A stretch of 57,340 nucleotides of DNA from an uncultured Candidatus Saccharibacteria bacterium (GCA_964514375.1 CAZEQH010000005.1:1-57340), one strand, 5' to 3'; numbered from the stretch's first letter, positions 27,453-50,422 are shown. Notes: generated from the sequence alone by a model not told the origin. Program-made: numbers and translations.

Positions 27453-27941
27453 ATGGCTTCACGTCATCTTTCTCGTTCCATCGCCATGCAGTCACTCTAC
27501 GAGTGGGATTTTTCTGACCAGGAACCGGCCCTGGAAGGGTTGGTAGAAAGGAACCTGGAAGAATTCGGCCCCGGCCTGGAAGACCATGAGTTTGTCTGGA
27601 AACTGGTGACCGGAGTGATAGAGCACCTGAAGGAAATTAACGAAATCATCAAGAAAGCCGCTCCTCAGTGGCCCATTGCACAAATTTCCATTGTAGACAG
27701 GAATATTTTAAGGTTAGGAATTTATGAATTGCTGTATTCAGACAAAAAAGCGGTTCCTCCGAAAGTAGCCATTAACGAAGCCATAGAACTGGCCAAATCA
27801 TTCGGAGGAGAGAACTCAGGAAAGTTCATCAACGGAGTTCTGGGTACGGTTTATGAGCTGATAGCTCCCGAAGAGAGCTCCCAGAAAAAAGAAACAAAGA
27901 CTCCGCCAGCTGGCGGGGAGGAAAAAGAGTCAAACGAATAA
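27453..27941 (+). CDS. nusB: Antitermination factor NusB
   Basis: [40 protein letters not shown]. Confidence 0.95.
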
Positions 27942-28037
27942 AATAATAAATAATAAACAATAAACAATAAACTGGTGGTTGGTAGTTAATAGTTGAATCT
28001 CTTAGCTGCTAACTACAAACTACTAGTTTGAAAGTCT

Positions 28038-28727
28038 GTGAAGGAGTTTTCAAAATTTGAAAAAGGATTAAGTATTAATTTTAAAAACCGTGATTTGCTG
28101 ACCCAGGCTTTTGTCCATAGGTCTTATCAGAACGAGCATCCTGATTTTCATCTTTCCAATAACGAACGGCTGGAATTCTTGGGCGATGCAGTACTGGAGC
28201 TGGTGGTAACAGAGGATCTTTTCCAGAAATATCCGGATAAACCCGAAGGAGAGCTTACTAATTGGAGAGCATCCCTGGTGAACTCCAAGATACTCTCCCG
28301 AATCGCCAGGAGATTGGGATTTAACGATTTTCTTCTGCTTTCCCGGGGAGAATCAAAGGAAATAGGTAAGGCCAGGAAATATATCTTAGCCAATACCTTT
28401 GAGGCAGTCATCGGCGCCATCTATCTTGACCAGGGATACGAAGTTTGTCAGGATTTCATTATAAAGAACCTTATGGGGGAGCTTCCTCAGATAATAGAGA
28501 AGGGTCTATATAAGGACTCCAAATCACGTTTCCAGGAAGAAGCACAAGAGAAGGTGGGGATTACCCCTACTTACCGGGTGTTGAAAGAATGGGGTCCCGA
28601 CCACGCCAAAAGTTTCGTGGTAGGAGTATTTTTAGGCAAAGAGCTAATAGCCGAAGGCGACGGTTCCTCCAAACAGGAGGCTGAAGAATCATCCGCCCGC
28701 CAAGCACTAGAAAGTAAACAATGGTAA
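28038..28727 (+). CDS. rnc: Ribonuclease III
   Basis: NERLEFLGDAVL, dsRBD KSRFQEEAQ. Confidence 0.97.
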   Translation: MKEFSKFEKGLSINFKNRDLLTQAFVHRSYQNEHPDFHLSNNERLEFLGDAVLELVVTEDLFQKYPDKPEGELTNWRASLVNSKILSRIARRLGFNDFLLLSRGESKEIGKARKYILANTFEAVIGAIYLDQGYEVCQDFIIKNLMGELPQIIEKGLYKDSKSRFQEEAQEKVGITPTYRVLKEWGPDHAKSFVVGVFLGKELIAEGDGSSKQEAEESSARQALESKQW

Positions 28728-28741
28728 ACCAGTAAAAAAAT

Positions 28742-29380
28742 ATGTTAATGATAAGATTATTCCGTGTAGGAAAAAGGAATCAGCCGATTTTTAAGATAGT
28801 AGTTACGGAAAAAAGGAACTCTCCGAAGAGAGGGCGTTTTACTGAGGAAATCGGTTTTGTAAACCCTTTAACCAAGGAAAAGAAAATAAATAAAGAGAGA
28901 GCAAGTTACTGGCTGTCGGTGGGGGCTCAGCCTTCAGCTACGGTATATAATCTTTTGATAGATGAGAAAATTATAAAGGGACAGAAAAAGAGAAAGCACG
29001 GAAAATCCAAGAAGAAAGTTTCTGCTGAAACTTCAGAAGAACAGGAAGTTAAAGCTGGAGCTGCAGAAGGGGAACAGGCAAAGGAGAAATCCAAGGAAGA
29101 AATTAAGGAGGAAGCGAAGGAAAAAACTCCCGAGGAAAAACCGGAAACCCCTATCAAGGAAGAGGAAAAAGAGCCCCAGGAGAAGGCTCAGGGACCAGAG
29201 CAGGAAAAAGAATCTGGCGCAGAACCAAAAGAAAAAAAAGAAACAGTTGAGGATAATAAAGAGATTGAAGCCCCCGAGAAGAAAGAAGAAATAGAGGCGC
29301 CGGAAAAAGGAGAAGAAAAAAGAGAAGAAAAAAGAGAAGAAGAACCTTCTGGAGAACGGGAAAATATAGAGGAAAAATAA
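28742..29380 (+). CDS. rpsP: 30S ribosomal protein S16 with long Glu/Lys-rich tail
   Basis: IRLFRVGKRNQP, GRFTEEIG, WLSVGAQPS. Confidence 0.93.
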   Translation: MLMIRLFRVGKRNQPIFKIVVTEKRNSPKRGRFTEEIGFVNPLTKEKKINKERASYWLSVGAQPSATVYNLLIDEKIIKGQKKRKHGKSKKKVSAETSEEQEVKAGAAEGEQAKEKSKEEIKEEAKEKTPEEKPETPIKEEEKEPQEKAQGPEQEKESGAEPKEKKETVEDNKEIEAPEKKEEIEAPEKGEEKREEKREEEPSGERENIEEK

Positions 29381-29479
29381 CCATTATTTTCGAGTTAATT
29401 CTATGAAATGAACGGAATCACCGTTCATTTTTGTGTAATAAATATCGTCTTTAGACGTCATACTATAAAGAGCACTAAT

Positions 29480-29637
29480 ATGGCCGAATTTTACTTACCA
29501 TTGTTATTTTTCTATTTTTTACCAAGAGGCCTTTTCGTCACTGCCACTACCTCTTCTTAGTGAGGTTGGTTTGTAGTTTAAATAAAAAAGTATATAACAC
29601 TGAAAAACAAACCAACCTCTCTGCGAAGAGGTTTTTT
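29480..29637 (+). promoter_or_regulatory. Attenuator-like leader (26-aa ORF 29480-29560 plus alternative hairpins), homologous to the thrS leader
   Basis: ORF ends GTC ACT GCC ACT ACC TCT TCT TAG; 13-bp 2:3 helix; AACCTCT/AGAGGTT terminator plus T tract. Confidence 0.7.
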
Positions 29638-29675
29638 CGTACTTTTACAATCAAAAATAAAGAGGTGAAAGCCGA

Positions 29676-29915
29676 ATGGAAAGCGAATTGGTATCAGTTA
29701 AGGATTTATTAATAGGAAGAGCCATTGTCGATATAAAGGAAATATCAGATAACCAGGGATGCAATATTATTAAATTTTGCCTGGATAATAACAGTGTCCT
29801 GGAGATGGGCATGAAAGACGGGATAAGAGACAACGGTATTTATCTGTACTCCTATTTATCTTTGGACGGCCGGGAAATATATAATGACGTTGACGGCCAA
29901 ATCAGCTCCTTCTAA
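29676..29915 (+). CDS. Hypothetical protein (79 aa)
   Basis: ORF with GAGGTG SD; followed by terminator 29927-29947. Confidence 0.6.
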   Translation: MESELVSVKDLLIGRAIVDIKEISDNQGCNIIKFCLDNNSVLEMGMKDGIRDNGIYLYSYLSLDGREIYNDVDGQISSF

Positions 29916-30050
29916 AGAATAATATTAAGGCCTTTCAGGCCTTTTTTATTACCTAATTCACTGTTTGGGCGGATGCCGAAGAACTCAGCCTGTTTCTCCC
30001 GTCGGGCGGGAGCGTAGTCGTTTATCCTGAACGAAGTCGAAGGAAATCCG

Positions 30051-30078
30051 TTGACAAATCATACTAAAATGTTATAAT
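30051..30078 (+). promoter_or_regulatory. Sigma70 promoter with extended -10
   Basis: TTGACA-16-TATAAT with TGn. Confidence 0.75.
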
Positions 30079-30313
30079 ATTAATAGTCGCGACTGGACAG
30101 AATCAAATAAAGATTCCCTTTCCTACACCATTCACGTAATGGTAGGGAAAGGGATGGAGGAGGGAGCACTTTTTATTACAAAATATAATCTCCTCCATCC
30201 CTTTCCCTATAGAGGGAATTGTTCTTTATAAGGAAAAAAGGGAAGAACCCTCGGATGGTGTAATTTGTTCGCTGAAAAAGAGAGGATAAATTACACCATC
30301 TGAGGTAAACTAG

Positions 30314-30595
30314 ATGAAAGAAAAAGTTTTTAAAGATGAGAAAGACATAGAAATATTCAGAAGGATCAGTATGCCTAACGTAGAAGATCTTTTGGATATA
30401 GAGATAGAAATCAAAAACCTGTCCAGTTTTTTCAACGAAGAGAGAGTTATGAAGGCGGTTGAAAAATTGATTATCCGCTTTGCCAGGATGGTTATTGTGT
30501 CTGGTATCACAACAGATCTCTTGGGGGACTGGTCAATGTTGGATAGAATAGACTCGTTTATAGAAGAGCTCAACAAAGAGTTAACATTATTTTAA
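30314..30595 (+). CDS. Hypothetical protein (93 aa)
   Basis: ORF with GAGGT SD buried in a long hairpin. Confidence 0.6.
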   Translation: MKEKVFKDEKDIEIFRRISMPNVEDLLDIEIEIKNLSSFFNEERVMKAVEKLIIRFARMVIVSGITTDLLGDWSMLDRIDSFIEELNKELTLF

Positions 30596-30782
30596 AATCT
30601 TCCTTTTTTCTTTTTTAATATTAACCCTGAGCTTGTCGAAGGGTTGACAAAGTCATCATAAACATTAATAATTTTAGTAGGCAGTAGCTTTTTTCTGAAT
30701 AGCCGTTTCTCCGAAATGATGGGAAACAGTTAGGCTGAAAGGTCGGGCTACTGGGAAAATACGAACGAATTCTGTTGGAACT

Positions 30783-31094
30783 ATGACAAAAGATTCAATT
30801 GACAAGGAATTTCTTGAGTATATTGTCAAAGCCTTAGTCGATAATCCCAGCGACGTCAAAGTTGATAGAAAAGTTGACGAAATGGGCGTATTACTTTCCC
30901 TGAAAGTAAACCCCGAAGATATGGGCCAAATTATCGGTAAGGGCGGCTCTACTGCTAGAGCTATCAGGAATCTGGTTCGGATTGTTGGGCTGAAGAATCA
31001 CGCCCGCGTGAACCTCAAAATAGAGGAACCAGAAGGCTCTGCTAAAGGAAAAAAGTCCTCAGCAGACGAAAGTCTTGAAGACTTAAAACTGTAA
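30783..31094 (+). CDS. khpA: KH-domain RNA-binding protein (KhpA/YlqC family)
   Basis: LEYIVKALVDNP, DMGQIIGKGGSTARAIR; in the rpsP-trmD neighbourhood. Confidence 0.88.
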   Translation: MTKDSIDKEFLEYIVKALVDNPSDVKVDRKVDEMGVLLSLKVNPEDMGQIIGKGGSTARAIRNLVRIVGLKNHARVNLKIEEPEGSAKGKKSSADESLEDLKL

Positions 31095-31160
31095 ATCTTA
31101 AACTCGATTTACTTTGCGAGAAAGCGATGCTATAATTATTAGCATCGTTTTCTTGTGTTT

Positions 31161-31859
31161 ATGCTGAAAATTGATATCGTTAGTATTTTCCCGGAAATAT
31201 TTGACCCTTTCCTTAAGACAAGCCTGATAAACAGGGCACAGAAAAAGGGGCTTCTTGGAATTGAAGTACACAATCTGAGAGACTGGACCGAAGATAATCA
31301 CCAGACGGTTGACGACAGGCCCTATGGGGGAGGTATCGGCATGGTGATGAAAGTTGAGCCCATATTTCGGGCCGTGAAAGACATCAAAAAATTAAAGCGG
31401 ACCAGTAAAAGAAAAGTCATCCTGTTTTCTCCCCGCGGAAAGAAGTTCAATCAGAAAGCAGCCCATTCTTTAAGCAGATTAAATCATATTATTATGCTGT
31501 GCGGAAGATACGAGGGGGTGGATGAGAGGGTGGCTAAGAATATAGCAGATGTCGAACTTTCCATAGGAGATTACGTTTTGATGGGAGGGGAATTACCTGC
31601 TATGGTGGTAATGGAATCTTTGGCTCGCCTCATTCCCGGCGTGCTGGGAAAACCCGCCTTTCTAAAGGAAAGAGTGACCAAGCAGAAAGGGTTTGTAGAA
31701 TATCCGCAGTATACTCGTCCCGAAGTATTCAGTCCGGGTCCTCGGCAGAGTAAAAGCAAGAAAACAGCGAAATGGAAAGTACCCGAGGTCTTGCTTACAG
31801 GCGATCACAAGAAGATTCAAGAATGGAGAGAAGAGCACTCTAAAGTTATTGAGGAATAG
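31161..31859 (+). CDS. trmD: tRNA (guanine-N1)-methyltransferase
   Basis: [42 protein letters not shown]. Confidence 0.97.
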
Positions 31860-31972
31860 GTTGAAATTCCGATTAAAATAATGTAAGGTGATAAATTGAG
31901 AAAACGTTAGAAACCGTGGGTTTCTAAAGAGCGAAGCCTTTAAGGCTGAGCGACTGATTACATATTACCACA

Positions 31973-32054
31973 GGGTGGTTGGCGGAGCAGCTATCGCACC
32001 AGTCTGTAAAACTGGCGTCTTATGACTTCGGGGGTGCAAGTCCCTCACCACCCA
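31973..32054 (+). tRNA. tRNA-Tyr(GTA)
   Basis: GGGTGGT/ACCACCC acceptor, CCAGT-CTGTAAA-ACTGG anticodon arm, long variable arm. Confidence 0.92.
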
Positions 32055-32216
32055 CACAAAGAGATATTAGTACGCTCGCCTTGCGAGCTTTAGTAGATGA
32101 GTAAAGAGAACTTATTTGCTTATTAACTCATCTCCCCATCTGCTCATTAACTAATAAACTTTTAATTACACGGTAATTACAAGGAGCGTAACGACTGATT
32201 CCTATTACTAGTTATC

Positions 32217-32289
32217 GCCGATGTAGCTCAGTTGGCAGAGCACCTCCATGGTAAGGAGTAGGTCGCCAGTTCAAGTCTGGCCATCGGCT
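32217..32289 (+). tRNA. tRNA-Thr(GGT)
   Basis: GCCGATG/CATCGGC acceptor, loop ATGGTAA, T arm GTTCAAGT. Confidence 0.92.
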
Positions 32290-32383
32290 CATAAATGTGT
32301 ATTGTTTAAATTAGAAACATAACCTGGAGTTTTGAAAATTAATCCTGAATTAGAGGGATTTAATTCGAAATTCTTCTACGGGG

Positions 32384-32545
32384 ATGCCGAAAAAAAAGAA
32401 ACCATACGTAAAAATGAAGTGTACCATTTGCAAGAGGGTGAACTATTACACCCGCAAATCCCAAAAAATGATAGGGGAAAAGTTAGAGTTGAAAAAGTAC
32501 TGCAAATGGTGCAAGAAACATACCCTTCATAAGGAGGCGAAATAA
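32384..32545 (+). CDS. rpmG: 50S ribosomal protein L33, Zn-binding form (missed by the ORF track)
   Basis: [25 protein letters not shown]...[20 protein letters not shown]; lies before tRNA-Trp. Confidence 0.93.
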
Positions 32546-32577
32546 TCCTGTGTTTATAGTTTAGTATTTGACTATAT

Positions 32578-32651
32578 GGGGGCGTCGGTTAATAGGCAAA
32601 CCACCGGTCTCCAAAACCGGCATACTGGGGGTTCAATTCCCTCCGCCCCTG
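32578..32651 (+). tRNA. tRNA-Trp(CCA)
   Basis: GGGGGCG/CGCCCCT acceptor, CCGGT-CTCCAAA-ACCGG anticodon arm. Confidence 0.93.
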
Positions 32652-32873
32652 CAACCCTTCGCTAAAGCTACGGAATTGCTTCGGGGCTTTAAAATAAGAT
32701 ATCCGCATAGTCAATCAGGTGTTCTGAAGCTTTAGCGAAAGACACCTCTCCGCCCCTGCTTGTCTCGCCGGAGCCTTGTAGGGCGAAGGTGGGCCTTTCT
32801 TAAATGGCGTGGAAACACGTCATTTATTCTTCTCTTAAAGGGTATCTTCGTGTTATAATAACGTAGTAAAGAT

Positions 32874-33203
32874 ATGAATCTTCCCAAGCTGAATAAAACT
32901 AAAATTCTACTTACCGTCCCATTAGCCGTTATTTCTCTGAAAATATATCTAGGAGCTGTTTTTGGATATTTTTTTGCCAGGTTTATGGCCGAGCATCTGG
33001 ATTCAGTTATTCTTTCATTCGGTAGCTACCACCTGCATTTTCACCATTGGATGATGGGCTCGATAGGAGTATTATTTTTCCTGTTGTACGAATTTACTCC
33101 TTCAATAGAGCATTTCATCTTCGGATTCTTAGGAGGATTAATCTTCCAAGGGGTGACTTCTTATCCTGATTGGTATCGCATACTTAGAAAGGGTCAAGAT
33201 TAA
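32874..33203 (+). CDS. Small membrane protein
   Basis: Hydrophobic ORF with HLHFHHW motif. Confidence 0.65.
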   Translation: MNLPKLNKTKILLTVPLAVISLKIYLGAVFGYFFARFMAEHLDSVILSFGSYHLHFHHWMMGSIGVLFFLLYEFTPSIEHFIFGFLGGLIFQGVTSYPDWYRILRKGQD

Positions 33204-33280
33204 TTTTTTTAAAATATATTATAATTATTAAAGTACGAAAGTACCACTAATTTATAATTAAAAAATAATTTTTCACTTTT

Positions 33281-34888
33281 ATGAATAAAGCAATCATTTT
33301 CTTAATAGTCGTTGTGGTGGCAGCAGGGGTTATCTATCAGACCCTAGTCAGGAAGTCTGAGCCGGAATTCAAGACGGCCGAGGTTGCCCGGGGGCAGGTA
33401 GTTCAGGAAGTTTCGGAAACAGGACAGGTGGAAAAAGGTGACAAAATAAACTTAAACTTTCAGCTTTCCGGTACCATTAAGGATATTTACTTGGAAGTGG
33501 GGGATGAGGTGCAGAAAGGAGACATTCTTGCCAAGCTTGATGATGAGCAATTAAGAATCAGGATAAACGATGCCGAAGCGGCCTTGGATCTGGCAGACGC
33601 CCAGTTCAATAAACTCCTGGCCGGGGCCACCCCTCAGGAAATAAAGATTGCCGAGACATCTGTTAAAAATGCTCAGACTGCCCTCTCCTCAGCCCAACAG
33701 GGCCTTAATGATGTTAAGGCTCAGGCTGCAGAAGGCCTTGAATCTGCATACGAAGACTCCTTGAATTTATTAGATGATGCTTCTCTTCAGCTTGCCAACA
33801 GTTATCATTTAGCTGATTCTGTCCAGACCACTTATTTTAAAGCCAGCGATCAGGAAGGCATAAAGGTGCAAAATCAGGCCCAGGAGATAAGGATGGCTCA
33901 GAACGAATTTAATCCTGTTAACAGCAAGGCTCAGGTCTCAGGGGAGGAACAGGATATTGACGCAGCCCTTATTTCAGCCCAGCAAGCACTAGGAAGGGTT
34001 TCAGAAGCTCTAAAAACCATCAGACAGGCCTGTACCGGTCTTACTTATAAAAACCTTGTTTCATCAGCAGATAAAACCTTGCTGGAGACCCAGCAGGGTT
34101 ATGTGCTTGCGTCCTTGACCAACATAGTCAATTCACAACAGGCTGTGGCTTCGGCCAGATTAAGTAATCAGACGAACGTAAATACAGCCCAGGCCAAGGT
34201 GGAAGTTTCTTCCGGTCAGCTTGCCGCGGCTCAGGACGAACTAGACAGATTAAAAGCGCCTCCCCGGCAGGAGGACGTCAATCTATATCAGGCTCAGGTT
34301 AAACAGGCCAGAAGTCAGATTACTTTGCTGGAAAACCAATTGGAAGAAACATTACTTACCAGTCCTTCTTCCGGCCAGATTGTCCAGATTAATAGAAGAA
34401 AGGGGGAGGTGGTCCAGTCCGCTTTACAGGAGCCGGTTATGGTGCTTCTGCCTCAGGACCCATTTGTTATAAAGGTGGACATTTATGAGGAAGACGTAGC
34501 CCATATGAGCCTCGGCAATCCCGTATCCATCTCTTTAGTGGCTTTTCCTGACCAGAGCATTGAAGGCGAAGTGGTGGCCATAGATCCGGCTGAGAAAATG
34601 ATAGAAGGAGTAGTTTATTACGAGGTGACCGTAGATTTTTCTCAGGTTCCCGAAGGAATCAAGCCTGGTATGACAGCAGACTTGATTATTACGACCCAGG
34701 TTAAGGACAACGTGTTGTTTGTGCCGGATGAAGCGATTCAGCAGCGGGACGGAAATACCGCCGTTATTGAGATAATGGATTCTGGCAAACCACGGGAAAT
34801 AACCGTGGAGCTTGGTTTAAAAGGGAGTTCTGACCGCCAGGAAATACTATCCGGGCTCAGCGAAGGAGATTTGGTGGTGATAAGATAA
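33281..34888 (+). CDS. Efflux periplasmic adaptor (HlyD/MacA-like)
   Basis: N-terminal TM, VGDEVQKGDILAKLD lipoyl half, long coiled coil, beta-barrel IKPGMTAD. Confidence 0.88.
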   Translation: MNKAIIFLIVVVVAAGVIYQTLVRKSEPEFKTAEVARGQVVQEVSETGQVEKGDKINLNFQLSGTIKDIYLEVGDEVQKGDILAKLDDEQLRIRINDAEAALDLADAQFNKLLAGATPQEIKIAETSVKNAQTALSSAQQGLNDVKAQAAEGLESAYEDSLNLLDDASLQLANSYHLADSVQTTYFKASDQEGIKVQNQAQEIRMAQNEFNPVNSKAQVSGEEQDIDAALISAQQALGRVSEALKTIRQACTGLTYKNLVSSADKTLLETQQGYVLASLTNIVNSQQAVASARLSNQTNVNTAQAKVEVSSGQLAAAQDELDRLKAPPRQEDVNLYQAQVKQARSQITLLENQLEETLLTSPSSGQIVQINRRKGEVVQSALQEPVMVLLPQDPFVIKVDIYEEDVAHMSLGNPVSISLVAFPDQSIEGEVVAIDPAEKMIEGVVYYEVTVDFSQVPEGIKPGMTADLIITTQVKDNVLFVPDEAIQQRDGNTAVIEIMDSGKPREITVELGLKGSSDRQEILSGLSEGDLVVIR

Positions 34889-34902
34889 GGAGGTTTTGGA
34901 AT

Positions 34903-35625: not shown

Positions 35626-35633
35626 GATAAAAT

Positions 35634-36851: not shown

Positions 36852-36889
36852 ATTTAATTTAAGAACATTTTATTATAATTATTAAAAAT

Positions 36890-37489: not shown

Positions 37490-37498
37490 ATTATTAAC

Positions 37499-37835: not shown

Positions 37836-38486
37836 ATGACTTTAATAGAAAAGCTAATAGACGGCGGCTGGCTAAAAAGCCCTAAAATCATAGAAGCCTT
37901 CCGGGAAATAAAGAGGGTGGATTTTTTGCCGAAATACATGGCGGGTCTGGCAGAAATTAACGAAGCCCTGCCCATAGGTCGCGGACAGACCATTTCCCAG
38001 CCCTTGGTAGTGGCTTTTATGATGGAAAAACTGCAGCCTGAAGAAGGTGATAAAGTTTTAGACATAGGTTCGGGTTCTGGTTGGACAACCGCCATATTGG
38101 CTCATCTGGTGGGAAAAACGGGTAAGGTGATTGCACTGGAAATAATCCCGGAATTAAAAGAATTCGGAGAAAAGAACGTAGCCAAATACAGCTTTATAAA
38201 TAGGGGAATAGTGGAATTTATCTGCGCGGACGGTTCCCTGGGATGTCCCGACATTACTTCGCGTCCTGAATTTGTCGAAGGCTTTGATAAGATTCTGGCT
38301 TCCGCCGCAGGAAACTCCTTGCCTAAAAAATGGAAAGAACAACTGAAAATAGGGGGTAAGATAGTGACTCCCCTTAAATCTTCCATCTGGGTTTTCGAAA
38401 AGAATCCGCCAGCCGGCGGGAAGGACGGATTTAGAGAAACAGAATATCCCGGCTTTGCCTTCGTTCCTCTGATAACGGGAAAATAG
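37836..38486 (+). CDS. pcm: Protein-L-isoaspartate O-methyltransferase
   Basis: ALPIGRGQTISQP, VLDIGSGSGW, FAFVPL. Confidence 0.93.
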   Translation: MTLIEKLIDGGWLKSPKIIEAFREIKRVDFLPKYMAGLAEINEALPIGRGQTISQPLVVAFMMEKLQPEEGDKVLDIGSGSGWTTAILAHLVGKTGKVIALEIIPELKEFGEKNVAKYSFINRGIVEFICADGSLGCPDITSRPEFVEGFDKILASAAGNSLPKKWKEQLKIGGKIVTPLKSSIWVFEKNPPAGGKDGFRETEYPGFAFVPLITGK

Positions 38487-40129: not shown

Positions 40130-40140
40130 TTATTATTATT

Positions 40141-40224: not shown

Positions 40225-40300
40225 TATTCCACAGATTTTTATTTTTCCCATAGAGAAATTTCTGTTCAATATTAGTAGATATCCGAATTATTATATTAGT

Positions 40301-40822: not shown

Positions 40823-40824
40823 AT

Positions 40825-41271
40825 ATGGCAGAAGAAACAAAAAATCCGCCAGCTGGCGGAGAGGAAAAGGAAGTGGAAGTCCCTGCCAAATTCAAGGATT
40901 TGGTGGAAAAGATTGAAAAGATGAACGTCCTGGACCTGGCTGAACTGGTGAAGATTTTAGAGAAGAAATTTGGAGTTTCGGCAGCCCCTCAGATAGTTGC
41001 CGCAGCCGGTGCCGCAGCAGGTGCCGCCGCAGGCGATCAGGGAGGCGAAAAAAGCAGCTTTAACGTAGTTCTGGCAGGCGTGGGAGAAAAGAAAATAGAG
41101 GTCATTAAGGTTGTCCGTGATATTACCCAGAAGGGCTTGAAGGAATCCAAAGACCTGGTTGACGCGGCAGCTTCAACCCCTCAGGTGATAAAGGAAGGGG
41201 CCAAGAAGGAAGAAGCAGAGGAAATGAAGAAGAAGTTTGAAGAGGCGGGAGCCAAGGTTGAACTGAAGTAA
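40825..41271 (+). CDS. rplL: 50S ribosomal protein L7/L12
   Basis: [42 protein letters not shown]. Confidence 0.97.
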
Positions 41272-41384
41272 AAATTTCCTTGTGTAAAAACAAAAAAGGC
41301 CTTGTTGAAAGGTTCTTTTTTGTTGAAAAATCCGATTTTTAAGCAAAAAAAATAAGGGACTTATCATCGCGTTGGTAGGCGCCC

Positions 41385-42668: not shown

Positions 42669-42955
42669 TTTTTGAATCACCCCGATTTACCCATCTTTTT
42701 AGCCGGGCAAATCGGGATGATTTTCTTTGTAAAGAACAGGTAAAAGTGAATAATTTTCACTTTCTATCATAATTATAATATCAAAATATAATTTTGTCAA
42801 CAGAAACCATGAATTTTCTAAAATACCTGAATCTTCTAAATACTCACTAATTATGCATATGCATAATTAGCGCGTATCGAGAGAAAAGAAGAGGGTGGGA
42901 AAAGTAAAAAACCGGGGGTTAGCCGGTTTGCGAATCCAGAGAAAATTTAATTAGA

Positions 42956-44995
42956 TCAGAGGTCTATTTTGTAGAGGATGAGGCCGTTTAATAAATAAAC
43001 GGCCTTTTCGTCTTCCGATACGGTAAAGTCAAGCAGGTTATCAAACTTTTCACTTTGAAACTGCTTTATGGTCTCGCCGTCTTTATCTAATATGACAAGC
43101 CGTCTTTGCTCGGGCTCCAGTATATAAAGGTAAGAGAAATGAGAATCGGTAATCACTTTGGAGAATTTCTTGGGGGCAGGGAAGATATTGATGTCCAGTT
43201 CTCTCTGTAATTCTCCTCCATAATATTCCTGGAGTTTGTTTTCCCTTAGAATCCACACAGAGCCGTCGATGGCAATGGAGTCAGCTCCTACCACTTTGGT
43301 AGTTTTTCCCGTAAGCCAGAGCTGGGGAGAACCCCATTGGAACGCTGAAAGATACGGATATTTTATTATTTGACCGGACTTTTTATCAAGGAAATATAAA
43401 CTCTGATTGAAAGAGTCAAAATCACTCAGCGCATAATCAGGATAAGGACTTTCCAGAGAGAATCTGGAGGGCGAGTCGTTCTTCAGCACGATTACCTGGT
43501 TGGGAGCAGAGAAAAAGGCTGCCGCCTTCTCGAGAACTGCGGAAGAGTTTATTTGTTTTTCCGTTCCGATAGTATTTTCCTCACCGTTTGTCTTGAGTTC
43601 AAAAATATTGGCGGCGTAAGGGCTGGAAAAATAAATATCGGAGCCTGATATTACCACCTTATAAGGCACAAAGGATCCATTTTCAAATTGATGAAAGGCG
43701 GTCGGTTCTTCTATAGTTTCCAGACTGTTGAGCTTAAACAATCTGTCGGTAATCTCATTCTTAATGATGGAAACCTGATTGTTAAAGGATTCGGGAAGGC
43801 CCGAGGTTTCTTTTGACAGGGAAGAAATCTTTTCCAAGCTTTCCATCAGAAGAAGATTGGCTTTTTGTACAGCTTCGGGTTGAGTATCTTTTAAAATTAG
43901 ATAGCTGTCTATGGTGGTAATGTTCTGCTCTATGCCTTCCAGTTCCTGAGTATAAACATCAATCTTTTTCTGCTCATTTCTGGTGGCAAAGAAAGAGCCA
44001 ATTATCAGAATGAAAAGAAGTGTTGCTATTAAAATTACTTTTCTGTTTTTAATAAAAATGCGGGTTTTTTCTCCGAGAGAAGCAAAAAACATCCTGATTT
44101 TGAGTGAGATTTTTCCCAAAAAGTCTACTGCGAACTTCGGAGCGGGGAGTTTAATTTCCGGTATCTTTAGCGCCTTAGGCATACTCATCTTCCTTCCGGA
44201 TTTTCCGGATACAGACTCGGTTCTCTCTTCGCGCTGCAGGAATTTCAATAAGGGAGAGAACACTTCCTTGAAAGAGAATTCTTTAAGTGTTTCGGGCGCG
44301 AAAGTCTCTTTGGTGCCGATAACAGCCTCTTTGGTGAGAGCTGCGACCAGCATAATTCCCTGGATGTTGGTCATCCGCTCTCTTCTTTCCTCCAAAATCT
44401 TTTTTAAGGCCTTTTCGTCAAAGAATGGGATTTGAGCCATCGCATCAAGCACTTTTTCTTTTTGGAAGAAATCAAAAACGTTTTTTGTTAAAACCAATAT
44501 CAGGTCGCCTTCAGCTAACTTCCCTGAAACCGTATTACTAAAAACCTTCAATGGATATGGTTCCAAGTCCTGACCGTTTATTTTCTTGTCTATGTCTATA
44601 AGTATATTCTTCCTCAATACCATAATTTTAATATCTCCCACTTTTGCGAAATTCAATTTGAAGTCCTTAATGGATAAAACGGTGAAATTAAGGTTTCCCA
44701 GCCAGCTGACATTACCCTGTTTGATTAGTTTGTCCAGAAATTCATTAGCCACCTTTAAACTTTCTTTCAAAGACTTTTCCGGTTTTAAGATGCTTTTTCG
44801 GTAATAGTAATCCTTTATCACTTTGGCCAGCTTTTCTATAAAATGGTTGTTCTGGGGAATGGTATTTTCCAAGAGACCTACCATATATAGGCTGCCCATC
44901 CTTTTTTCATAGATATTTATCGGCTCATAACAAAAACTGTCGAAATTCAGATTCGGTTTAACTTTCGGATTGAAATGGAACTCAAAAACCTGCAT
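42956..44995 (-). CDS. Large membrane-anchored protein (PP2C-like N-terminus, one TM, beta-propeller-like C-terminus)
   Basis: FAKVGDIKI...GDLILVLT resembles a PPM fold without a clear metal motif; TM near residue 330; NHL-like LYILEP repeats. Confidence 0.5.
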   Translation of the reverse strand: MQVFEFHFNPKVKPNLNFDSFCYEPINIYEKRMGSLYMVGLLENTIPQNNHFIEKLAKVIKDYYYRKSILKPEKSLKESLKVANEFLDKLIKQGNVSWLGNLNFTVLSIKDFKLNFAKVGDIKIMVLRKNILIDIDKKINGQDLEPYPLKVFSNTVSGKLAEGDLILVLTKNVFDFFQKEKVLDAMAQIPFFDEKALKKILEERRERMTNIQGIMLVAALTKEAVIGTKETFAPETLKEFSFKEVFSPLLKFLQREERTESVSGKSGRKMSMPKALKIPEIKLPAPKFAVDFLGKISLKIRMFFASLGEKTRIFIKNRKVILIATLLFILIIGSFFATRNEQKKIDVYTQELEGIEQNITTIDSYLILKDTQPEAVQKANLLLMESLEKISSLSKETSGLPESFNNQVSIIKNEITDRLFKLNSLETIEEPTAFHQFENGSFVPYKVVISGSDIYFSSPYAANIFELKTNGEENTIGTEKQINSSAVLEKAAAFFSAPNQVIVLKNDSPSRFSLESPYPDYALSDFDSFNQSLYFLDKKSGQIIKYPYLSAFQWGSPQLWLTGKTTKVVGADSIAIDGSVWILRENKLQEYYGGELQRELDINIFPAPKKFSKVITDSHFSYLYILEPEQRRLVILDKDGETIKQFQSEKFDNLLDFTVSEDEKAVYLLNGLILYKIDL

Positions 44996-45081
44996 TCTTT
45001 GAAGTTATATCTCCCTTAGAATATTTTACTTTTTATTTATCTTATTGTAAAATAGCAAAGTTGCTTTAAAGGTGAAAAATT

Positions 45082-45555
45082 GTGATAATAAGATTAGATA
45101 AAACTATGTTAATAGAAGGTTATAAACAAGAAATTAAAAAGATAGGGTTCGACTTTGACGGGACCTTCACTTATTGTAATCAAGAATTAAAAAGAACGCT
45201 GGAATCTCTCAGAATTCCCTGGAGCATAATCAACTTGTTGTTTATCAATAGCCGTCCCAATAAGAGACTCATCAAGGCCTTGAAAAAAATCCAAAGAGAC
45301 TACAAAATAGTCATAATTTCTTCGAGGCCGACGTTCCTCAGGAAAAAGATAGAAAATTTCCTGGTAACCCAAGGATTGCAGGAGATAGAGATAATATGCA
45401 CCGGCTGGCTGCGCAGAAAGAACAGGAAGCTCAAGGCGTTGAAGGAGACTGGAATCAATGTTTATATTGATAACGAAAAAGATATCAGGGAATTCTTGAA
45501 GGAAAACCTGATATCGACTTTTTCTCCGTTGGCTTTTTGCAAGCTTGTTTCATAG
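45082..45555 (+). CDS. HAD-superfamily hydrolase (5'-nucleotidase-like)
   Basis: GFDFDGT motif I, ISSR motif II, K, YIDN motif IV. Confidence 0.7.
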   Translation: MIIRLDKTMLIEGYKQEIKKIGFDFDGTFTYCNQELKRTLESLRIPWSIINLLFINSRPNKRLIKALKKIQRDYKIVIISSRPTFLRKKIENFLVTQGLQEIEIICTGWLRRKNRKLKALKETGINVYIDNEKDIREFLKENLISTFSPLAFCKLVS

Positions 45556-45625
45556 GGCATTTTAACAGTGCCCTTTGTTTTTTATTTACTTGCAGCGCGA
45601 TATCTGTTAAATTAATGTAGGTTTG

Positions 45626-45699
45626 GGGCGAATGGCTCAGTTGGTCAGAGCGCTGCATTCACATTGCAGAGGTCACAGGTTCGAATCCTGTTTCGCCCA
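45626..45699 (+). tRNA. tRNA-Val(CAC)
   Basis: GGGCGAA/TTCGCCC acceptor, CTGCA-TTCACAT-TGCAG anticodon arm. Confidence 0.93.
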
Positions 45700-45853
45700 C
45701 CTTTCCCTTCAACTAGGTTCAGGGCAAGCGACTCGCGTTGCTCGCTCCCTTCGACAAGCTCCGGATAAAACAGGACAGGCTATTTAATCGCTTTTTGGCG
45801 ATTTTTTGTTTACAAAATTATTAGGAAATGAGATGATTAACTAATAGTCTTAT

Positions 45854-46183
45854 ATGAAAAAGATATACATTGAAGAAGAATTATATAAAAAAGCTCCGGT
45901 TAACGATTTGATTATATTCAGCGCCTACCTGATGATGGAGTCCGGGAAGAAATGCGATTTTGAAAGTTTAACAGAAAAATGTTTCGGTTTATTTCCTAAG
46001 GTTTTTTCAATTTCCGGATATCCCAAATGGCCCGATACACGCAAACTTGACCGCCCCCTGAGAGCTTTGCGGAGTGACAGTCTTATTACGGGAAGCCCTC
46101 AGGCAGAATTCGGGCTGACTAAAAAGGGAAGGAAACGTGCCGTAGAAATAGCAGAGAATTTCAGGCAGGGAAAGCTGCTTTAG
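45854..46183 (+). CDS. Hypothetical protein, probably winged helix
   Basis: Helical ORF ending in a wing-like FGLTKKGRKRA. Confidence 0.5.
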   Translation: MKKIYIEEELYKKAPVNDLIIFSAYLMMESGKKCDFESLTEKCFGLFPKVFSISGYPKWPDTRKLDRPLRALRSDSLITGSPQAEFGLTKKGRKRAVEIAENFRQGKLL

Positions 46184-46260
46184 CGGCTTGATTATCGACT
46201 TTTTTTCCGTTAGAATAATCTTATGAAAGGTCGTATTAATAGAGTAATTTGACATCAAAA

Positions 46261-46386
46261 ATGGGATCGTCGTCGCTAATTGACCTTTACGAAACATTCG
46301 TATTTGGAGTAACCGTTTTGTTTACAATAGGCTTTATAGTAACAGCATTATTTGCTGCTTTAATTAAAAGCCTAAGAGGATTTTAG
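46261..46386 (+). CDS. 41-aa single-TM small protein (not in the ORF track)
   Basis: MGSSSLIDLYETFVFGVTVLFTIGFIVTALFAALIKSLRGF; promoter TTGATT-17-TAGAAT at 46188-46216. Confidence 0.55.
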   Translation: MGSSSLIDLYETFVFGVTVLFTIGFIVTALFAALIKSLRGF

Positions 46387-46412
46387 AAAAAATCTTATAA
46401 AAATTATCTTAT

Positions 46413-46694
46413 ATGGCAAGCCCGGCCAGAATTCATATGCTGGTATCAGGCCAAGTCCAGGGTGTCTATTTTAGAGAGAACACCCGGAAAAAGGCTGAAG
46501 AGCTGGGTATTTCCGGTTGGGTTCAAAATATGCTTGACGGGAGGGTTGAGATTGTAGCTGAAGGAAACAAAGAAAAATTAGAGGAACTGGCGCGCTGGGC
46601 CAAACAAGGTCCAGCTTTTGCTAAAGTGGAGGAATTCCAAACAGATTGGCAGGAATATAAGGGAGGCCTGGAAGAATTTCAGATAAGATATTAA
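46413..46694 (+). CDS. acyP: Acylphosphatase
   Basis: GQVQGVYFR, GWVQNMLDGRVE, GPAFAKV. Confidence 0.93.
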   Translation: MASPARIHMLVSGQVQGVYFRENTRKKAEELGISGWVQNMLDGRVEIVAEGNKEKLEELARWAKQGPAFAKVEEFQTDWQEYKGGLEEFQIRY

Positions 46695-46732
46695 GCAGCT
46701 TACCCCCTGTATTTATATGCCGAAGAAAGACA

Positions 46733-47209
46733 ATGATTAACGAACTTTTCCTTCAACTTTCGGGCTTGGGTTATGTAGGCATTTTTATTATAAACCTGAT
46801 AGGTGCTTCGACTATAATTTTTCCCATGCCAGCTGCAGCTTTCGTGCTGGCCTCGGGAGCTTTCTTGAACCCCGTTCTTTTGGGTCTTAGTGCGGGCTTG
46901 GGAGCAGCTTTGGGTGAGTTGGTTGGATACGGTTTAGGATTGGGAAGCAGGAAAATTGGAGAAAAAAAATTTGATAAGGAATTATTGAAGGCGGAAAAAA
47001 TGTTTGAGAAATACGGAGGGTTTGTGACGCTGATGGTGTTCGCCGCTACTCCTCTGCCGGATGACGTAGTAGGTGTGGTGGCTGGCATATTAAACTACAA
47101 GGTTAAGAAGTTTTTCATAGCTGTCCTAATTGGGAAAATCGTTCTTAATATAACTTTAGCTGCAGCAGGTTTCTACGGTATTAAAGGAATAATAAAGTAT
47201 TTTTTTTAA
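46733..47209 (+). CDS. VTT / DedA-family membrane protein
   Basis: GAALGELVGYGLG, FAATPLPDD, GKIV. Confidence 0.85.
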   Translation: MINELFLQLSGLGYVGIFIINLIGASTIIFPMPAAAFVLASGAFLNPVLLGLSAGLGAALGELVGYGLGLGSRKIGEKKFDKELLKAEKMFEKYGGFVTLMVFAATPLPDDVVGVVAGILNYKVKKFFIAVLIGKIVLNITLAAAGFYGIKGIIKYFF

Positions 47210-47212
47210 TCT

Positions 47213-47515
47213 ATGAATATCGTCAAAAAGATTATCTTTTTTATCAGGAAAATTCTGGAAAAACTGCTGGTTTTCCTGGAACTATTTTTGTTTTTGAGAT
47301 TGCTTTTGAAGCTCTTGGCCGCTAATCCCTTTACTCCGGTAGTAAAATACCTATACAGATACAGCGGTCTTCTGGTAGAGCCATTTCAATATATATTCCC
47401 CGATTTCTATTGGAGAGGGAAGCTTGTTGAGATGTCCGCTATTTCAGCCATGATAGGGTATGGTATTGCGGTATATGTTGTCGTGCGTCTAATAAACATA
47501 TTGTTAAAAGATTAA
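47213..47515 (+). CDS. YggT family membrane protein
   Basis: LRLLLKLLAANP...LVEPF. Confidence 0.8.
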   Translation: MNIVKKIIFFIRKILEKLLVFLELFLFLRLLLKLLAANPFTPVVKYLYRYSGLLVEPFQYIFPDFYWRGKLVEMSAISAMIGYGIAVYVVVRLINILLKD

Positions 47516-47520
47516 TCTCT

Positions 47521-48003
47521 TTGCCTTTCGGACGGGACACTATGCCTGCTGAAAATAAAGAAAAAAGGAAACCTAAGATAATAATGTTTTTAATAGATAC
47601 GCTGTTGGGTATGCTGTTGAAGAATATCTTTTCTATGGCGGGCTATGAGGTTAAAGCTTTCTACAGCTATCAGGGTGCCGCGGAGACCATTATTAAGGAG
47701 AAGCCCGACATTTTAATCTGCGATGTTTTGTTAGACAAAACCAAAGAGAGGGTGGACAAGATAGGAGGATTTGATGCCATCAAAATATTCAAGTCAGACA
47801 AGAAAACTGCCGATATTCCCGTGGTTATCTTAAGCGACCTCTGTTATGAAGAAAACGTCAAGATGGGCTTGAGATTGGGGGCGGAAGAATATCTGTGTCT
47901 TGCCTTGTATCCTCCTTATAAAACTTTGGAGTTTGTAACAAACTTTTTGATAGAGAAGAAATATTTTAAGAAGGAGGATTTTAATCTCGTGAGAGGAAAA
48001 TGA
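47521..48003 (+). CDS. Single-domain response regulator
   Basis: KPDILICDV, IPVVILS, GAEEYL. Confidence 0.8.
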   Translation: MPFGRDTMPAENKEKRKPKIIMFLIDTLLGMLLKNIFSMAGYEVKAFYSYQGAAETIIKEKPDILICDVLLDKTKERVDKIGGFDAIKIFKSDKKTADIPVVILSDLCYEENVKMGLRLGAEEYLCLALYPPYKTLEFVTNFLIEKKYFKKEDFNLVRGK

Positions 48004-48617
48004 AGTCTTTTAAATCTATAGAAGCAGTTTTGGCTTTTCTGCTGATGATTGCAGTGGTTTTTGGAGTCTGGCATTCAAGGGAGACAAAACCTGAAGAAGA
48101 AACCGTAAAAGACAAAATTTTTTCTGTTCTGGCAGGATTTGATTTCCGTGACCCCGAGAGCTTTTCTTCGGTTTCCCAGATAGAAGAATTAGGGGAAAAG
48201 ACGGTGCCCGTGCTTCAGGGTCTGCTTGACAGTGATTCCATTTCCGAACGCTGGGCGGCCGTAATTCTTCTGCCCAGGTTTGCCGCACAAAATGAGGAGC
48301 TTGTGCCGTCAGTTGTTTCCGGGCTGACTAAGACCTTAGATGACCATGACGATACCCTGCGGATGCTTTCAGCCGTACAGCTAGCTTCTTTGGGGGAGAA
48401 AGATGGCATAAGGGTTTTGATTGAATCTTTATCTTCAGAAGAAACCACTCATTTTGGAGAACCGCCGGAATTGGTAAGGGAAAGAGCTTTGATTTACTTA
48501 CAACATTATACCGATTTTAACGGGACTTCTTTGTCGGCGTGGGAGAGCTGGTGGCAGGAAAACCAGACAGGATTGTTTTGGAACGCAGAGAAGAAGGTTT
48601 TTGAAACAAATCAATAA
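48000..48617 (+). CDS. Membrane-anchored HEAT-repeat protein
   Basis: N-terminal TM; LDDHDDTLRMLSAVQLASLG HEAT-like repeats. Confidence 0.7.
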   Translation: MKSFKSIEAVLAFLLMIAVVFGVWHSRETKPEEETVKDKIFSVLAGFDFRDPESFSSVSQIEELGEKTVPVLQGLLDSDSISERWAAVILLPRFAAQNEELVPSVVSGLTKTLDDHDDTLRMLSAVQLASLGEKDGIRVLIESLSSEETTHFGEPPELVRERALIYLQHYTDFNGTSLSAWESWWQENQTGLFWNAEKKVFETNQ

Positions 48618-48623
48618 ATTATC

Positions 48624-50192
48624 ATGAAAGGGAAGTTGATAACATTGCTAATAATTATATCTCTGTTCGTTCTTGGCGGGACGGCTCAAGCCAGGACTAC
48701 CGTTACCGTAAAGAATCGTACCATTGAAGTGGCTTTGAATCTTGCCTTTTCCTTTAAGGACAAAATTTCCTCAAAGGAACAGGAGCGCCTGATTGCAGAA
48801 TGGGTGGACGGTATGATGGATATATGGAACAACCCTGATTTTTCTTACGGGTCCTGTCGATATCCTGTCCATTTTCAGGTTACAACCGAGATACTGCCCG
48901 AAGACAAGACTTGTCTTGATGCACAGGAAAAGATGCCTGGTTTCCACTGCATCACCGTGGTCAGCAGTCCTGTTAATGCACGAGGCAATATCTCTGATTC
49001 TTCTTTAGTCTCACAGCAGTCTCCCAATAGTTACGGCGAGTGGACTGTCCACGCCACACCGGAGGACGCCGCCCATGAAATGGGGCACATGATGGGTTTG
49101 GGGAGAGAATATTACAGAGATGAGCGGGGTAATTGGATAACTGATAAACCTGAGGCGAATGACAGTATCATGGCCAGGGTCTGGAGTGAAGCCCAAGCCA
49201 AACAGTATCACATCGACGAGATTATGGAAGAAGCCGGAATTTCCTGTCCAAAGTCTTATGCCGGCGGCGAAGTAAAGGATATTATTCTGGTGGGGGACAT
49301 CATGATGGACAGGGGAGTTGAGTATTTTATGGACAAAAACAGCAGTGTTTTTTATCCCTTTGAAAAATTTAAAGATTTTTCCGAGGGCAAAGATATAATA
49401 TTCGGCAATCTTGAAGGGCCCATAGTTACAAATTATCAGATATCTCCTGAGGAAGAGTATCGTTTTGCCTTTGCCCCGGATACTGCCGAAGCCCTCAGCT
49501 TTGCCAATTTCAATCTGGTTTCTCTGGCCAATAACCATACCCTCAATATGGGGAGGGAAGGCTTTGAAGAAACCAAAGATTTTTTGAGTGTTTCTGGTAT
49601 AGATTTTATCGGAGATTCTGTCTACTGCAACCCGGAAGACGGCTGGCAAACGGAGGGTTTGGTTTTTTTGGCTTTCAATAAGACATTTCCTTTTAATTGC
49701 GGAGACGAAGAGATTACAGGAGTTATAAGAGATGTTTCAATAGAAAATCCTGATAAATTGCTGATAGTCAGTTTTCACTGGGGCAATGAATACCAGGAGA
49801 CGAGCTCTATTTTTCAGCAGGAACTGGCCCATAAGTCCGTGGACGCCGGAGCAGACCTCATAGTAGGCCAGCACCCCCACGTGGTGCAGGAAATCGAAGA
49901 ATACAAAGGAAAGCTTATTTTTTATTCCTTAGGCAACTTTTTATTCGACCAGTTTTTTTCCGAAGAAACCAAGCAGGGCTTGGTGGTTGAGGCCGTATTA
50001 TTCCAGGATTACACAATTTATAAGCTTTTCCCTTTTGACTTAAGCTTGGCCCAGCCGACTATGATGCAGGGTGAAGATAAAAACAATTTTTTAGGAAAAT
50101 TGGCACTGAGGTCTGATGAGGCCCTTACCTATCAAATAAAAGAAGGAGTTATAACAATCGAGTCGCAAAATATTATTTTAAATGTAGATTAG
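48624..50192 (+). CDS. Secreted zincin-like domain fused to a CapA (PGA_cap) metallophosphatase domain
   Basis: Signal peptide; HEMGHMMGL; VGDIMMDR, GNLEGP, LANNHTLN, SFHWGNEY, GQHPHVVQ, YSLGNFLFDQ. Confidence 0.85.
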   Translation: MKGKLITLLIIISLFVLGGTAQARTTVTVKNRTIEVALNLAFSFKDKISSKEQERLIAEWVDGMMDIWNNPDFSYGSCRYPVHFQVTTEILPEDKTCLDAQEKMPGFHCITVVSSPVNARGNISDSSLVSQQSPNSYGEWTVHATPEDAAHEMGHMMGLGREYYRDERGNWITDKPEANDSIMARVWSEAQAKQYHIDEIMEEAGISCPKSYAGGEVKDIILVGDIMMDRGVEYFMDKNSSVFYPFEKFKDFSEGKDIIFGNLEGPIVTNYQISPEEEYRFAFAPDTAEALSFANFNLVSLANNHTLNMGREGFEETKDFLSVSGIDFIGDSVYCNPEDGWQTEGLVFLAFNKTFPFNCGDEEITGVIRDVSIENPDKLLIVSFHWGNEYQETSSIFQQELAHKSVDAGADLIVGQHPHVVQEIEEYKGKLIFYSLGNFLFDQFFSEETKQGLVVEAVLFQDYTIYKLFPFDLSLAQPTMMQGEDKNNFLGKLALRSDEALTYQIKEGVITIESQNIILNVD

Positions 50193-50206
50193 CCTAAGAT
50201 AATTTT

Positions 50207-50422
50207 ATGCCTGAAAAATTTGAGAATTTGGACAAATGGCTGAAGCCTGAGGAGGAAGAAGAGAAAAAAAAGGAAGAAAAAGACGGAAAAGCCAAAAAGC
50301 CGACCTTAGATAAATGGATGAATCCGCCGGCTGGCGGAAAAGAAAAAGAGGAGGAAGAAGAGGATGATGACATGAAAAAACAAGGTTACGGAGATAAAGA
50401 TTTTCTTCGTCCTTTTGGATGA
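50207..50422 (+). CDS. Small highly charged hypothetical protein
   Basis: Two LDKW motifs, poly-Glu, NPPAGG. Confidence 0.5.
   Translation: MPEKFENLDKWLKPEEEEEKKKEEKDGKAKKPTLDKWMNPPAGGKEKEEEEEDDDMKKQGYGDKDFLRPFG

Follow-up and report, generated by a model that had tools for sequence, protein, structure and literature searches.

A 16-bp palindromic DNA repeat found in frame within unrelated genes of a Candidatus Saccharibacteria contig and recurring in Patescibacteria

Palindromic repeats that are carried in frame by protein-coding genes are best known from Rickettsia. The Rickettsia palindromic elements (RPEs) are present in unrelated housekeeping genes at positions where additional residues are tolerated, the encoded peptide is a by-product, and several families of such elements are found per genome (PMC10969869). 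[quoted passage not shown] The present analysis deals with a 57,340-nt contig (the window) from a metagenome-assembled genome (MAG) of an uncultured Candidatus Saccharibacteria bacterium, in which a 16-bp palindrome, TCCGCCAGCTGGCGGA, termed family A, is read in frame within four unrelated genes. Patescibacteria, also referred to as the candidate phyla radiation (CPR), account for a sizeable part of bacterial diversity, and additional segments without an explanation are a familiar feature of their proteins.

A search of the window for TCCGCCAGCTGGCGGA with up to two mismatches gives exactly four matches, versus 0.01 expected from 100 shuffles. They start at positions 27902 (one mismatch), 38405 (two), 40845 (none), and 50323 (one), all of which had been pointed out in the original prediction, an earlier reading of the sequence alone. 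That reading had further stated that the copies share one frame, encode (N/T)PPAGG between purine-rich flanks, and have no intergenic counterpart in the window, and this is borne out. Each copy is read as xxT CCG CCA GCT GGC GGA to give TPPAGG or NPPAGG, the flanks are purine-rich, and all four copies lie inside genes; relaxing the search to three mismatches adds no further copies, and the two extra matches obtained with four mismatches are chance-like.

The host genes encode NusB, Pcm, RplL, and a small conserved acidic protein. The first copy (27902-27917, plus strand, TCCGCCAGCTGGCGGG) gives (T)PPAGG within the NusB C-terminal tail (open reading frame (ORF) 27315-27941), beyond the Pfam domain at residues 53-180; as RNA, it would form a hairpin of -13 kcal/mol. 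The second (38405-38420, plus strand, TCCGCCAGCCGGCGGG, with the loop variant AGCC) places NPPAGG in the loop between the last β-strands of Pcm (37836-38486). The third (40845-40860, plus strand) is the perfect 16-mer and contributes NPPAGG as residues 7-12 of RplL (40825-41271), within a Lys/Glu-rich N-terminal tail ahead of the Pfam N-domain, which begins at residue 24. The fourth (50323-50338, plus strand, TCCGCCGGCTGGCGGA, with the loop variant GGCT) encodes (NP)PAGG in a 71-amino-acid protein (50207-50422); its GGCT loop is the AGCC loop of the Pcm copy seen from the opposite strand. Copies inside genes sit in tails or surface loops. Over these loci, the contigs of three other samples match with 100% identity, so that the copies are not an assembly artefact. 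As to the gene calls themselves, NusB is present in the protein collection at two lengths, 208 and 162 amino acids, the shorter call starting at 27453, and the 46-residue Arg/Lys-rich N-terminal extension of the longer one is probably spurious. RplL with its ATG at 40825 is absent from the protein collection, yet the M(A/T)EE start is kept in relatives.

Comparison with orthologues shows, at the level of aligned sequences, that the family A copies are insertions. In NusB, both the long tail and the motif are absent from all 23 syntenic relatives. In RplL, the motif is found in none of about 60 syntenic relatives and in neither of two relatives at 92% identity, while K-NPPAGG-E is present in the same Lys/Glu-rich tail of 3 of 118 other homologues, with identical codons. 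For the small acidic protein, which has no Pfam match and no entry in the protein collection, an exhaustive HMMER search led to a 144-amino-acid homologue (P0243; L475, 5001-5435). Since the two proteins have LDKW(L/M)NP and an identical 16-residue C-terminus, MKKQGYGDKDFLRPFG, in common and the neighbours of their genes are similar (PGA_cap, Gmad2/DUF333), the 71-amino-acid ORF is a real gene. Where the homologue has AAT CCC GAA AAA (NPEK), the window has AAT CCG CCG GCT GGC GGA AAA (NP-PAGG-K), which is a net gain of 12 nt beside a pre-existing AATCC. The two proteins form a conserved family without a name, with MKKQGYGDKDFLRPFG as its invariant C-terminus, and the window's member contains an internal LDKW(L/M)(K/N)P repeat.

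The situation in Pcm is patchy. Most of 120 homologues have a loop of the type ...IKKSEKEF..., with K-K-S where the window has K-NPPAGG, and about 25 of the 120 carry NPPAGG or one of the drifted forms NPPTGG, NPPVGG, NPPGGG, and NPSDNG. The NPPAGG alleles fall into at least eight places of a rough neighbour-joining tree, and some sister pairs differ only in its presence. Between filled and empty alleles, the 16-mer replaces 4 nt, with a net gain of 12 nt, that is, four codons. The alignment of orthologues for presence or absence, which the original prediction had proposed as a check, thus speaks for insertion in NusB, RplL, and the small protein, and for a patchy distribution in Pcm; the motif is not ancestral in all orthologues, as the closest relatives of the first three proteins are without it.

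That the inserted unit is defined by its DNA and not by its peptide is shown by the codons. Among nine Pcm orthologues with PPAGG, which have 65-83% amino-acid identity, the motif's third codon positions show 80% identity, compared with 36% at other conserved fourfold-degenerate residues; the perfect 16-mer is present in five of the nine, and Asn is encoded by AAT in all nine. RplL orthologues at 73-74% identity contain the identical 18-mer AAT CCG CCA GCT GGC GGA. Although 1024 codings of the peptide are possible, the same codons are used throughout, and in 1.93 Mb of CPR DNA not chosen by motif, PPAGG is found at only two sites in long ORFs, both of them encoded by the palindrome. In older Pcm copies, by contrast, the peptide drifts to NPPTGG, NPPVGG, and NPSDNG. 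On these grounds, family A is a DNA-level element, with the PPAGG peptide as a by-product. The original prediction had offered two branches, a DNA element brought into flexible regions by targeted insertion or duplication, and a selected linear peptide. The first of these is supported by the insertions, by the synonymous sites, whose inspection it had suggested and which point to constraint on the DNA, and by the presence of the same 16-mer in unrelated proteins and in non-coding DNA; its qualifier "targeted" is unproven, with neither a target-site duplication nor an enzyme found.

An exact scan for the 16-mer over 596 Gb (GTDB representative genomes) gave at least 120 loci, of which 41 are in CPR-labelled MAGs, a group whose share of the bases is estimated, not measured, at a few per cent. 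Matches of high GC content are ordinary coding sequence read as RQLAE, as chance predicts. Within CPR, the same 16-mer is found in unrelated genes and in distant, phylum-level lineages. The listed CPR-labelled loci hold 46 exact copies, with 24 in the PPAGG frame of ORFs measuring at least 120 amino acids, 2 read as SASWR, 1 read as RQLA, and 19 outside long ORFs. The copies are, therefore, neither random in frame (24:2:1) nor mostly intergenic (27 of 46 in long ORFs), two properties that the original prediction had named as speaking against its proposal. In 1.06 Mb of CPR DNA sampled via pcm synteny, nine copies with up to two mismatches were found, one of them in pcm itself; with an expectation of about 0.06, which is the author's estimate from base composition, this is an enrichment of about 150-fold. 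The density in sampled CPR DNA is roughly 5-10 copies per Mb, that is, roughly 5-10 per genome, and the four copies within 22 kb of the window are dense by comparison. Among the non-coding copies, some sit at the apex of a longer perfect hairpin, and others have a T-run after the hairpin. Viral contigs contain 55 exact matches, mostly in high-GC RQLAE coding sequence, and low-GC viral contigs show no enrichment. In Bacteroidota (L004, L021, L036, L037, L055, L017), the 16-mer mostly forms the apex of different, longer hairpins that are themselves repeats, such as ...ccctcTCCGCC...GGCGGAgaggg... or hairpins with gtcattgcgag... flanks; L017 has four copies within 2.5 kb.

Insight into the origin of individual copies comes from the NusB and RplL sites. 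The original prediction had noticed that both proteins have ETK(T/N)PPAGGEEKE in common, and the resemblance is real and extends to the DNA. A segment of about 39 nt, consisting of GAAACAAAGAC, the palindrome, and GAGGAAAAAGAG (27891-27929, plus strand), has its counterpart in RplL at 40834-40872 (plus strand), with 9 of 11 and 10 of 12 flanking bases identical. At 425 purine-rich junctions of the window, a match this good is reached by the one flank in 1.4% and by the other in 1.6% of the cases, and by both flanks in none. From these alignments, the end of nusB most likely received a copy of the segment from rplL; RplL would be the donor because relatives have the flanking MAEETK... and ...EEKEVEVP as part of their native RplL. 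Copying together with flanks is also seen elsewhere, namely in a repeat of about 140 nt in L035 and a 51-nt repeat in L038, both holding the palindrome, and tandem copies plus flanks are found within one protein in L076 and L100. The L035 repeat (1425-1558 and 3908-4065, in a Shapirobacteria MAG) is a multi-hairpin structure that ends in a terminator, while in L038 (4455-4505 and 7303-7353) the 16-mer is the core of a 30-nt perfect palindrome occurring twice.

The best explanation, to which a probability of roughly 0.55 is given, is that family A is a short hairpin repeat family spread by templated copying and filtered by tolerance. New copies would arise by ectopic gene conversion or by replication template switching between look-alike purine-rich stretches coding for Lys and Glu, and the reading frame would travel along with the copied flanks. 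Selection would then retain only those copies that encode a harmless peptide and have the A-run upstream on the sense strand, so that the hairpin with its T-run would face the antisense direction and spare the gene's own transcript. Templated copying is proposed because target-site duplications are missing and no single clean insertion leads from the empty to the filled Pcm alleles. The frame bias of 24:2:1 would be explained in part by the frame being carried with the flanks, together with the harmlessness of the Pro/Gly-rich peptide.

The anatomy of the repeat bears on this explanation. Family A consists of the arms TCCGCC and GGCGGA around the 4-nt centre AGCT and would, as RNA, form a hairpin of 6-7 bp with a 4-nt loop and -11 to -13 kcal/mol. 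Among 15 single-mismatch variants taken from the window, from orthologues, and from secondary copies, the change falls within positions 7-10 in 13 cases, within an arm in one case, and at position 16 in another, whereas 25% central changes would be expected by chance. In a comparison that fixes the arms and leaves the loop open, AGCT is still the commonest loop, followed by its single transitions GGCT/AGCC and AACT/AGTT; the arm positions 4 and 13, which are synonymous and mutually paired, were never seen to change or to covary. The Pcm genes of the window and of the 83%-identical relative L121 have two derived changes in common and one further difference within the motif, with synonymous sites near saturation, and the copy common to both is old, with its arms kept. 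The arms may have stayed intact either via recognition by a protein or via self-correction of the hairpin. In a terminator scan, the RplL and Pcm copies are among the top matches, both on the minus strand, where the RplL copy is a hairpin followed by TTTTTT. The same geometry is found at several intergenic copies, while the copy in the small protein is without it. An A-rich upstream flank accompanies about 36% of the coding copies compared with 11% of a background that is not matched for Lys-rich context. Within genes, a hairpin with a T-run can survive only in antisense orientation, and the geometry may reflect either a filter or a function.

Several of these observations weigh against a repeat that is merely copied and tolerated. 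The copy number in sampled CPR DNA is low; 13 of 15 single mismatches are central, with intact arms; and arm conservation at saturated synonymous divergence looks like constraint in place and not like junk DNA. The neighbour-joining tree of Pcm, which hints at repeated gains, is poorly resolved, with about 200 columns as its basis, and its filled and empty alleles are not linked by a single clean insertion. Neither the four window copies nor the orthologues of Pcm and RplL have a direct repeat indicative of a target-site duplication, the compared alleles gave no clean junction between empty and filled states with such a duplication, and no transposase, RAYT (REP-associated tyrosine transposase), or other mobility gene is among the genes of the window.

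Insertion of hairpins into genes is a wider phenomenon than family A. A second, unrelated palindrome, family B, is present in the window as CAGAGGTCCGACCTCTG, 9 nt, and the variant CAGAGGCCCGTCCTCTG (26725-26767, plus strand), in frame in the gene of RNase HII (26357-27055), where the two tandem copies form an 18-amino-acid insert (IGRGPTSVNLAEAR..LSGR) relative to the solved structure 3o3g. A further copy, ACAGAGGTCCGACCTCTGT (52066-52084, no strand assigned), is non-coding and lies downstream of a terminator-like hairpin. The exact 19-mer ACAGAGGTCCGACCTCTGT occurs at 26 loci of the genome collection (L449-L474), all in MAGs labelled or looking CPR, with several copies per genome; these are intergenic, often with T-runs, or lie in genes in three frames (YRGPTSV, TEVGPL, QRSDLC). 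As in family A, the stems are kept and the centre is variable. No exact family B match was found in viral contigs; with the family A matches there being mostly high-GC RQLAE coding, a link to phages was rejected. The searched literature holds no description of either CPR palindrome. The Pcm loop itself (window 38390-38440) has received at least four other GC-rich, hairpin-forming inserts in L210, L227, L243, and L133, namely SPSFAKATEGK, ...GDEPSVHLHS..., EGDEAVASSSPSLLRSKSS, and ARHNAVALGG, all of them directly after the Lys-codon A-run.

Further hairpins were encountered along the way. One CPR family is of the type CCTGCC...GGCAGG and gives GLPAGRQG in frame, and TCCCGC-GAAA-GCGGGA with gtcat/atgac flanks is found in non-coding CPR DNA (L251, 2261 and 3701; L276, 2182; L178, 4240-4297 and 15000-15040). 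In L062 (2170-2545) and L044 (1-110), the 16-mer stands in place of the D-loop in duplicated 5' fragments of tRNA-Asn, with an intact tRNA adjoining. Together with L057, these sites were considered as tRNAs with a D-loop insert, which was rejected, as ARAGORN finds only the normal neighbouring tRNAs. In L062 and L044, a small GIY-YIG nuclease gene is flanked by these fragments or follows about 25 nt downstream of them, and a GIY-YIG gene lies 60-120 nt from the copies in L029 and L055. This proximity may be a lead to an enzyme that handles the palindrome; as a general link it is weak, being confined to three or four loci, with eight other GIY-YIG genes having no palindrome nearby.

The most serious alternative to templated copying, though a tentative one, is that the palindrome is a selected cis-acting site gained by insertion. 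It would be the binding or cleavage site of a conserved dimeric Patescibacteria protein, or it would act as a hairpin in RNA or DNA, for instance as an antisense terminator, and its passage through coding sequence would follow from the scarcity of spacer DNA in these small genomes. This is what the invariant arms, inclusive of synonymous positions 4 and 13, and a centre drifting by transitions would lead one to expect, and the absence of compensatory covariation implies a constraint on the sequence and not on pairing alone. Conservation of the copy common to the window and L121 at saturated synonymous divergence, the identical 16-mer in phylum-level lineages, and the four copies in 22 kb, compared with roughly 9 per Mb elsewhere in sampled CPR DNA, point in the same direction. 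So do the scores of the RplL and Pcm copies as minus-strand terminators, the differing hairpins that follow the same A-run of the Pcm loop in other lineages, and the small GIY-YIG nuclease genes adjoining some intergenic copies. However, no candidate binding protein was identified, the palindrome is not parS, and the non-orthologous, lineage-specific positions in NusB, RplL, and the small protein argue against a position-specific function. A terminator would need no fixed sequence, the A-rich upstream flank accompanies only about one-third of the coding copies, and older copies decay at the peptide level (NPSDNG and others). A functional site and templated copying are not mutually exclusive. 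With similar reserve, the 16-mer and the unrelated family B might be candidate signals that are read by a conserved Patescibacteria protein, either a nuclease or recombinase, perhaps of the GIY-YIG type, or a chromosome or transcription factor, and that selection would preserve within essential genes of phylum-level lineages. If so, they would represent a new minimal mobile hairpin, with 12-16 nt per event, or a nucleic-acid code embedded in protein-coding sequence.

Biased DNA uptake or recombination is far less probable as an explanation. Motif-bearing alleles would spread horizontally by transformation, which would produce both the patchiness of the Pcm alleles in the tree and the frame bias; the latter, along with the preference for poorly conserved segments, recalls what is generally known of DNA uptake sequences (DUS) and uptake signal sequences (USS). 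According to the author's own observation, the palindrome also holds GCTGGCGG, which is one base off the Chi site of E. coli. Yet its density is about 100 times below that of known uptake sequences, and a palindrome cannot carry the orientation bias expected of Chi. Only 16-18 nt are conserved around the motif in Pcm orthologues, with no extended identity that would indicate a recombination tract, and low-GC viral contigs are not enriched. An uptake sequence or Chi was, therefore, deemed unlikely.

Still less can be said for NPPAGG as a selected short linear peptide motif, such as a protease tag or a partner-binding site, with the palindrome being incidental. In its favour, the four bases that vary in the window are all synonymous, and the motif is located in exposed tails and loops; the variant bases are, however, also exactly the hairpin-neutral positions. 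This second branch of the original prediction fails because the codons are fixed in Pcm and RplL, out of 1024 possible codings, and because PPAGG is found only where the palindrome encodes it. The drift of older copies, the 19 of 46 exact CPR copies (41%) outside long ORFs, the reading of family B in three frames, and the lack of the motif in the nearest orthologues for three out of four proteins are likewise at odds with it. Finally, chance, base composition, or an assembly artefact can practically be set aside, for although some 140 exact matches to the 16-mer would be expected over 596 Gb by the author's estimate, and many high-GC matches are exactly of this kind, only 0.01 copies are expected in the window, the CPR enrichment is about 150-fold, the sequence is identical in independent samples, and orthologues obtained in unrelated studies carry the motif as well.

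The gene content of the window, whose MAG is Parcubacteria-like within the Patescibacteria, is of the housekeeping type, comprising gyrB, nusG, L11, dnaE, thrS, rnhB, nusB, rnc, S16, trmD, pcm, mltG, L10, and L12. A search of the window against Rfam matched only tRNAs and the L10 leader, and no known RNA family was found at the four family A sites. Ribosomal protein S16 (28742-29380) is 212 amino acids long, with the S16 domain confined to about the first 80 residues and the rest forming a long C-terminal extension. The stretch of about 1.4 kb between S16 and the KH-domain gene (29380-30783) contains nothing but two small ORFs, neither of which has a family hit, and Rfam gives no match there.

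By this analysis, at least some of the extra protein segments of Patescibacteria are copies of short palindromic DNA repeats and not protein adaptations. Processes at the DNA level are writing the tails and loops of core proteins, ribosomal ones included, and the palindromic inserts, as homoplasies, can mislead alignments and start-codon calls. In size, the family A unit falls far below all intragenic repeats described so far, and yet its arms are maintained over long divergence, which points to a recognition or correction mechanism not yet known, in organisms that are not yet genetically tractable.

Several known systems share features with family A, and each of them fails at least one defining test. 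With parS and Noc sites, it has in common, as is generally known of these, a palindromic layout of 16 bp in which 6-nt arms enclose a 4-nt core, a small number of copies per genome that are often intragenic, and conservation across phyla. The parS consensus TGTTNCACGTGAAACA is, however, unrelated in sequence, and neither a canonical parS nor a ParB gene is present in the window. In another CPR MAG, three near-canonical parS sites lie within 230 bp (L175, 11036-11266), so that these bacteria use ordinary parS, and a parS-like centromere site was rejected. The DUS and USS likewise are, by general knowledge, DNA motifs that lie in genes, in tolerated frames and poorly conserved segments, and that serve as terminators when paired in inverted orientation; they are non-palindromic, family-specific, and occur about once per kb, while family A is found 4 times in the 57-kb window and 9 times in 1.06 Mb of CPR DNA. 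HIP1 of cyanobacteria (GCGATCGC) is, again from general knowledge, a perfect palindrome that is common in coding regions and conserved beyond codon needs. With 8 bp and about one copy per kb, it can arise by point substitution, whereas the 16-mer cannot, is about 100 times rarer, and is gained by insertion.

MITEs and SPRITE resemble family A in being small, non-autonomous repeats with hairpin potential, but a MITE has terminal inverted repeats around an internal segment and a length of 50-500 bp, compared with a single 16-bp palindrome without target-site duplication; longer repeats that contain the palindrome exist in other genomes and not in the window. The repetitive extragenic palindromic (REP) sequences and the REPINs composed of them are closer in appearance, since they are generally known as short GC-rich hairpins in multiple copies, with conserved stems and variable loops, some acting as terminators or protein-binding sites. 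They lie, however, outside genes, measure about 35 nt, number in the hundreds, and are linked to a RAYT gene related to IS200/IS605, while family A is mostly intragenic (27 of 46 exact CPR copies in long ORFs), low in copy number, and without a RAYT among the window genes.

The nearest precedent is the RPEs, as the original prediction had rightly proposed. Like these, family A is inserted in frame into unrelated genes at tolerated sites, here the NusB tail, the Pcm loop, the RplL tail, and the small acidic protein. By their description, RPEs are set apart in being confined to Rickettsia, while the same family A sequence extends across phylum-level CPR lineages with about 40% of its copies non-coding. 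RPEs measure about 100-150 bp, are imperfect, and add tens of residues; family A measures 16 bp (18 with the preceding AA), is perfect, and adds four to six. Family A is a very short variant of intragenic palindromic repeats, recurring in Patescibacteria MAGs, and by analogy it may be seen as a much shorter relative in kind of the RPEs.

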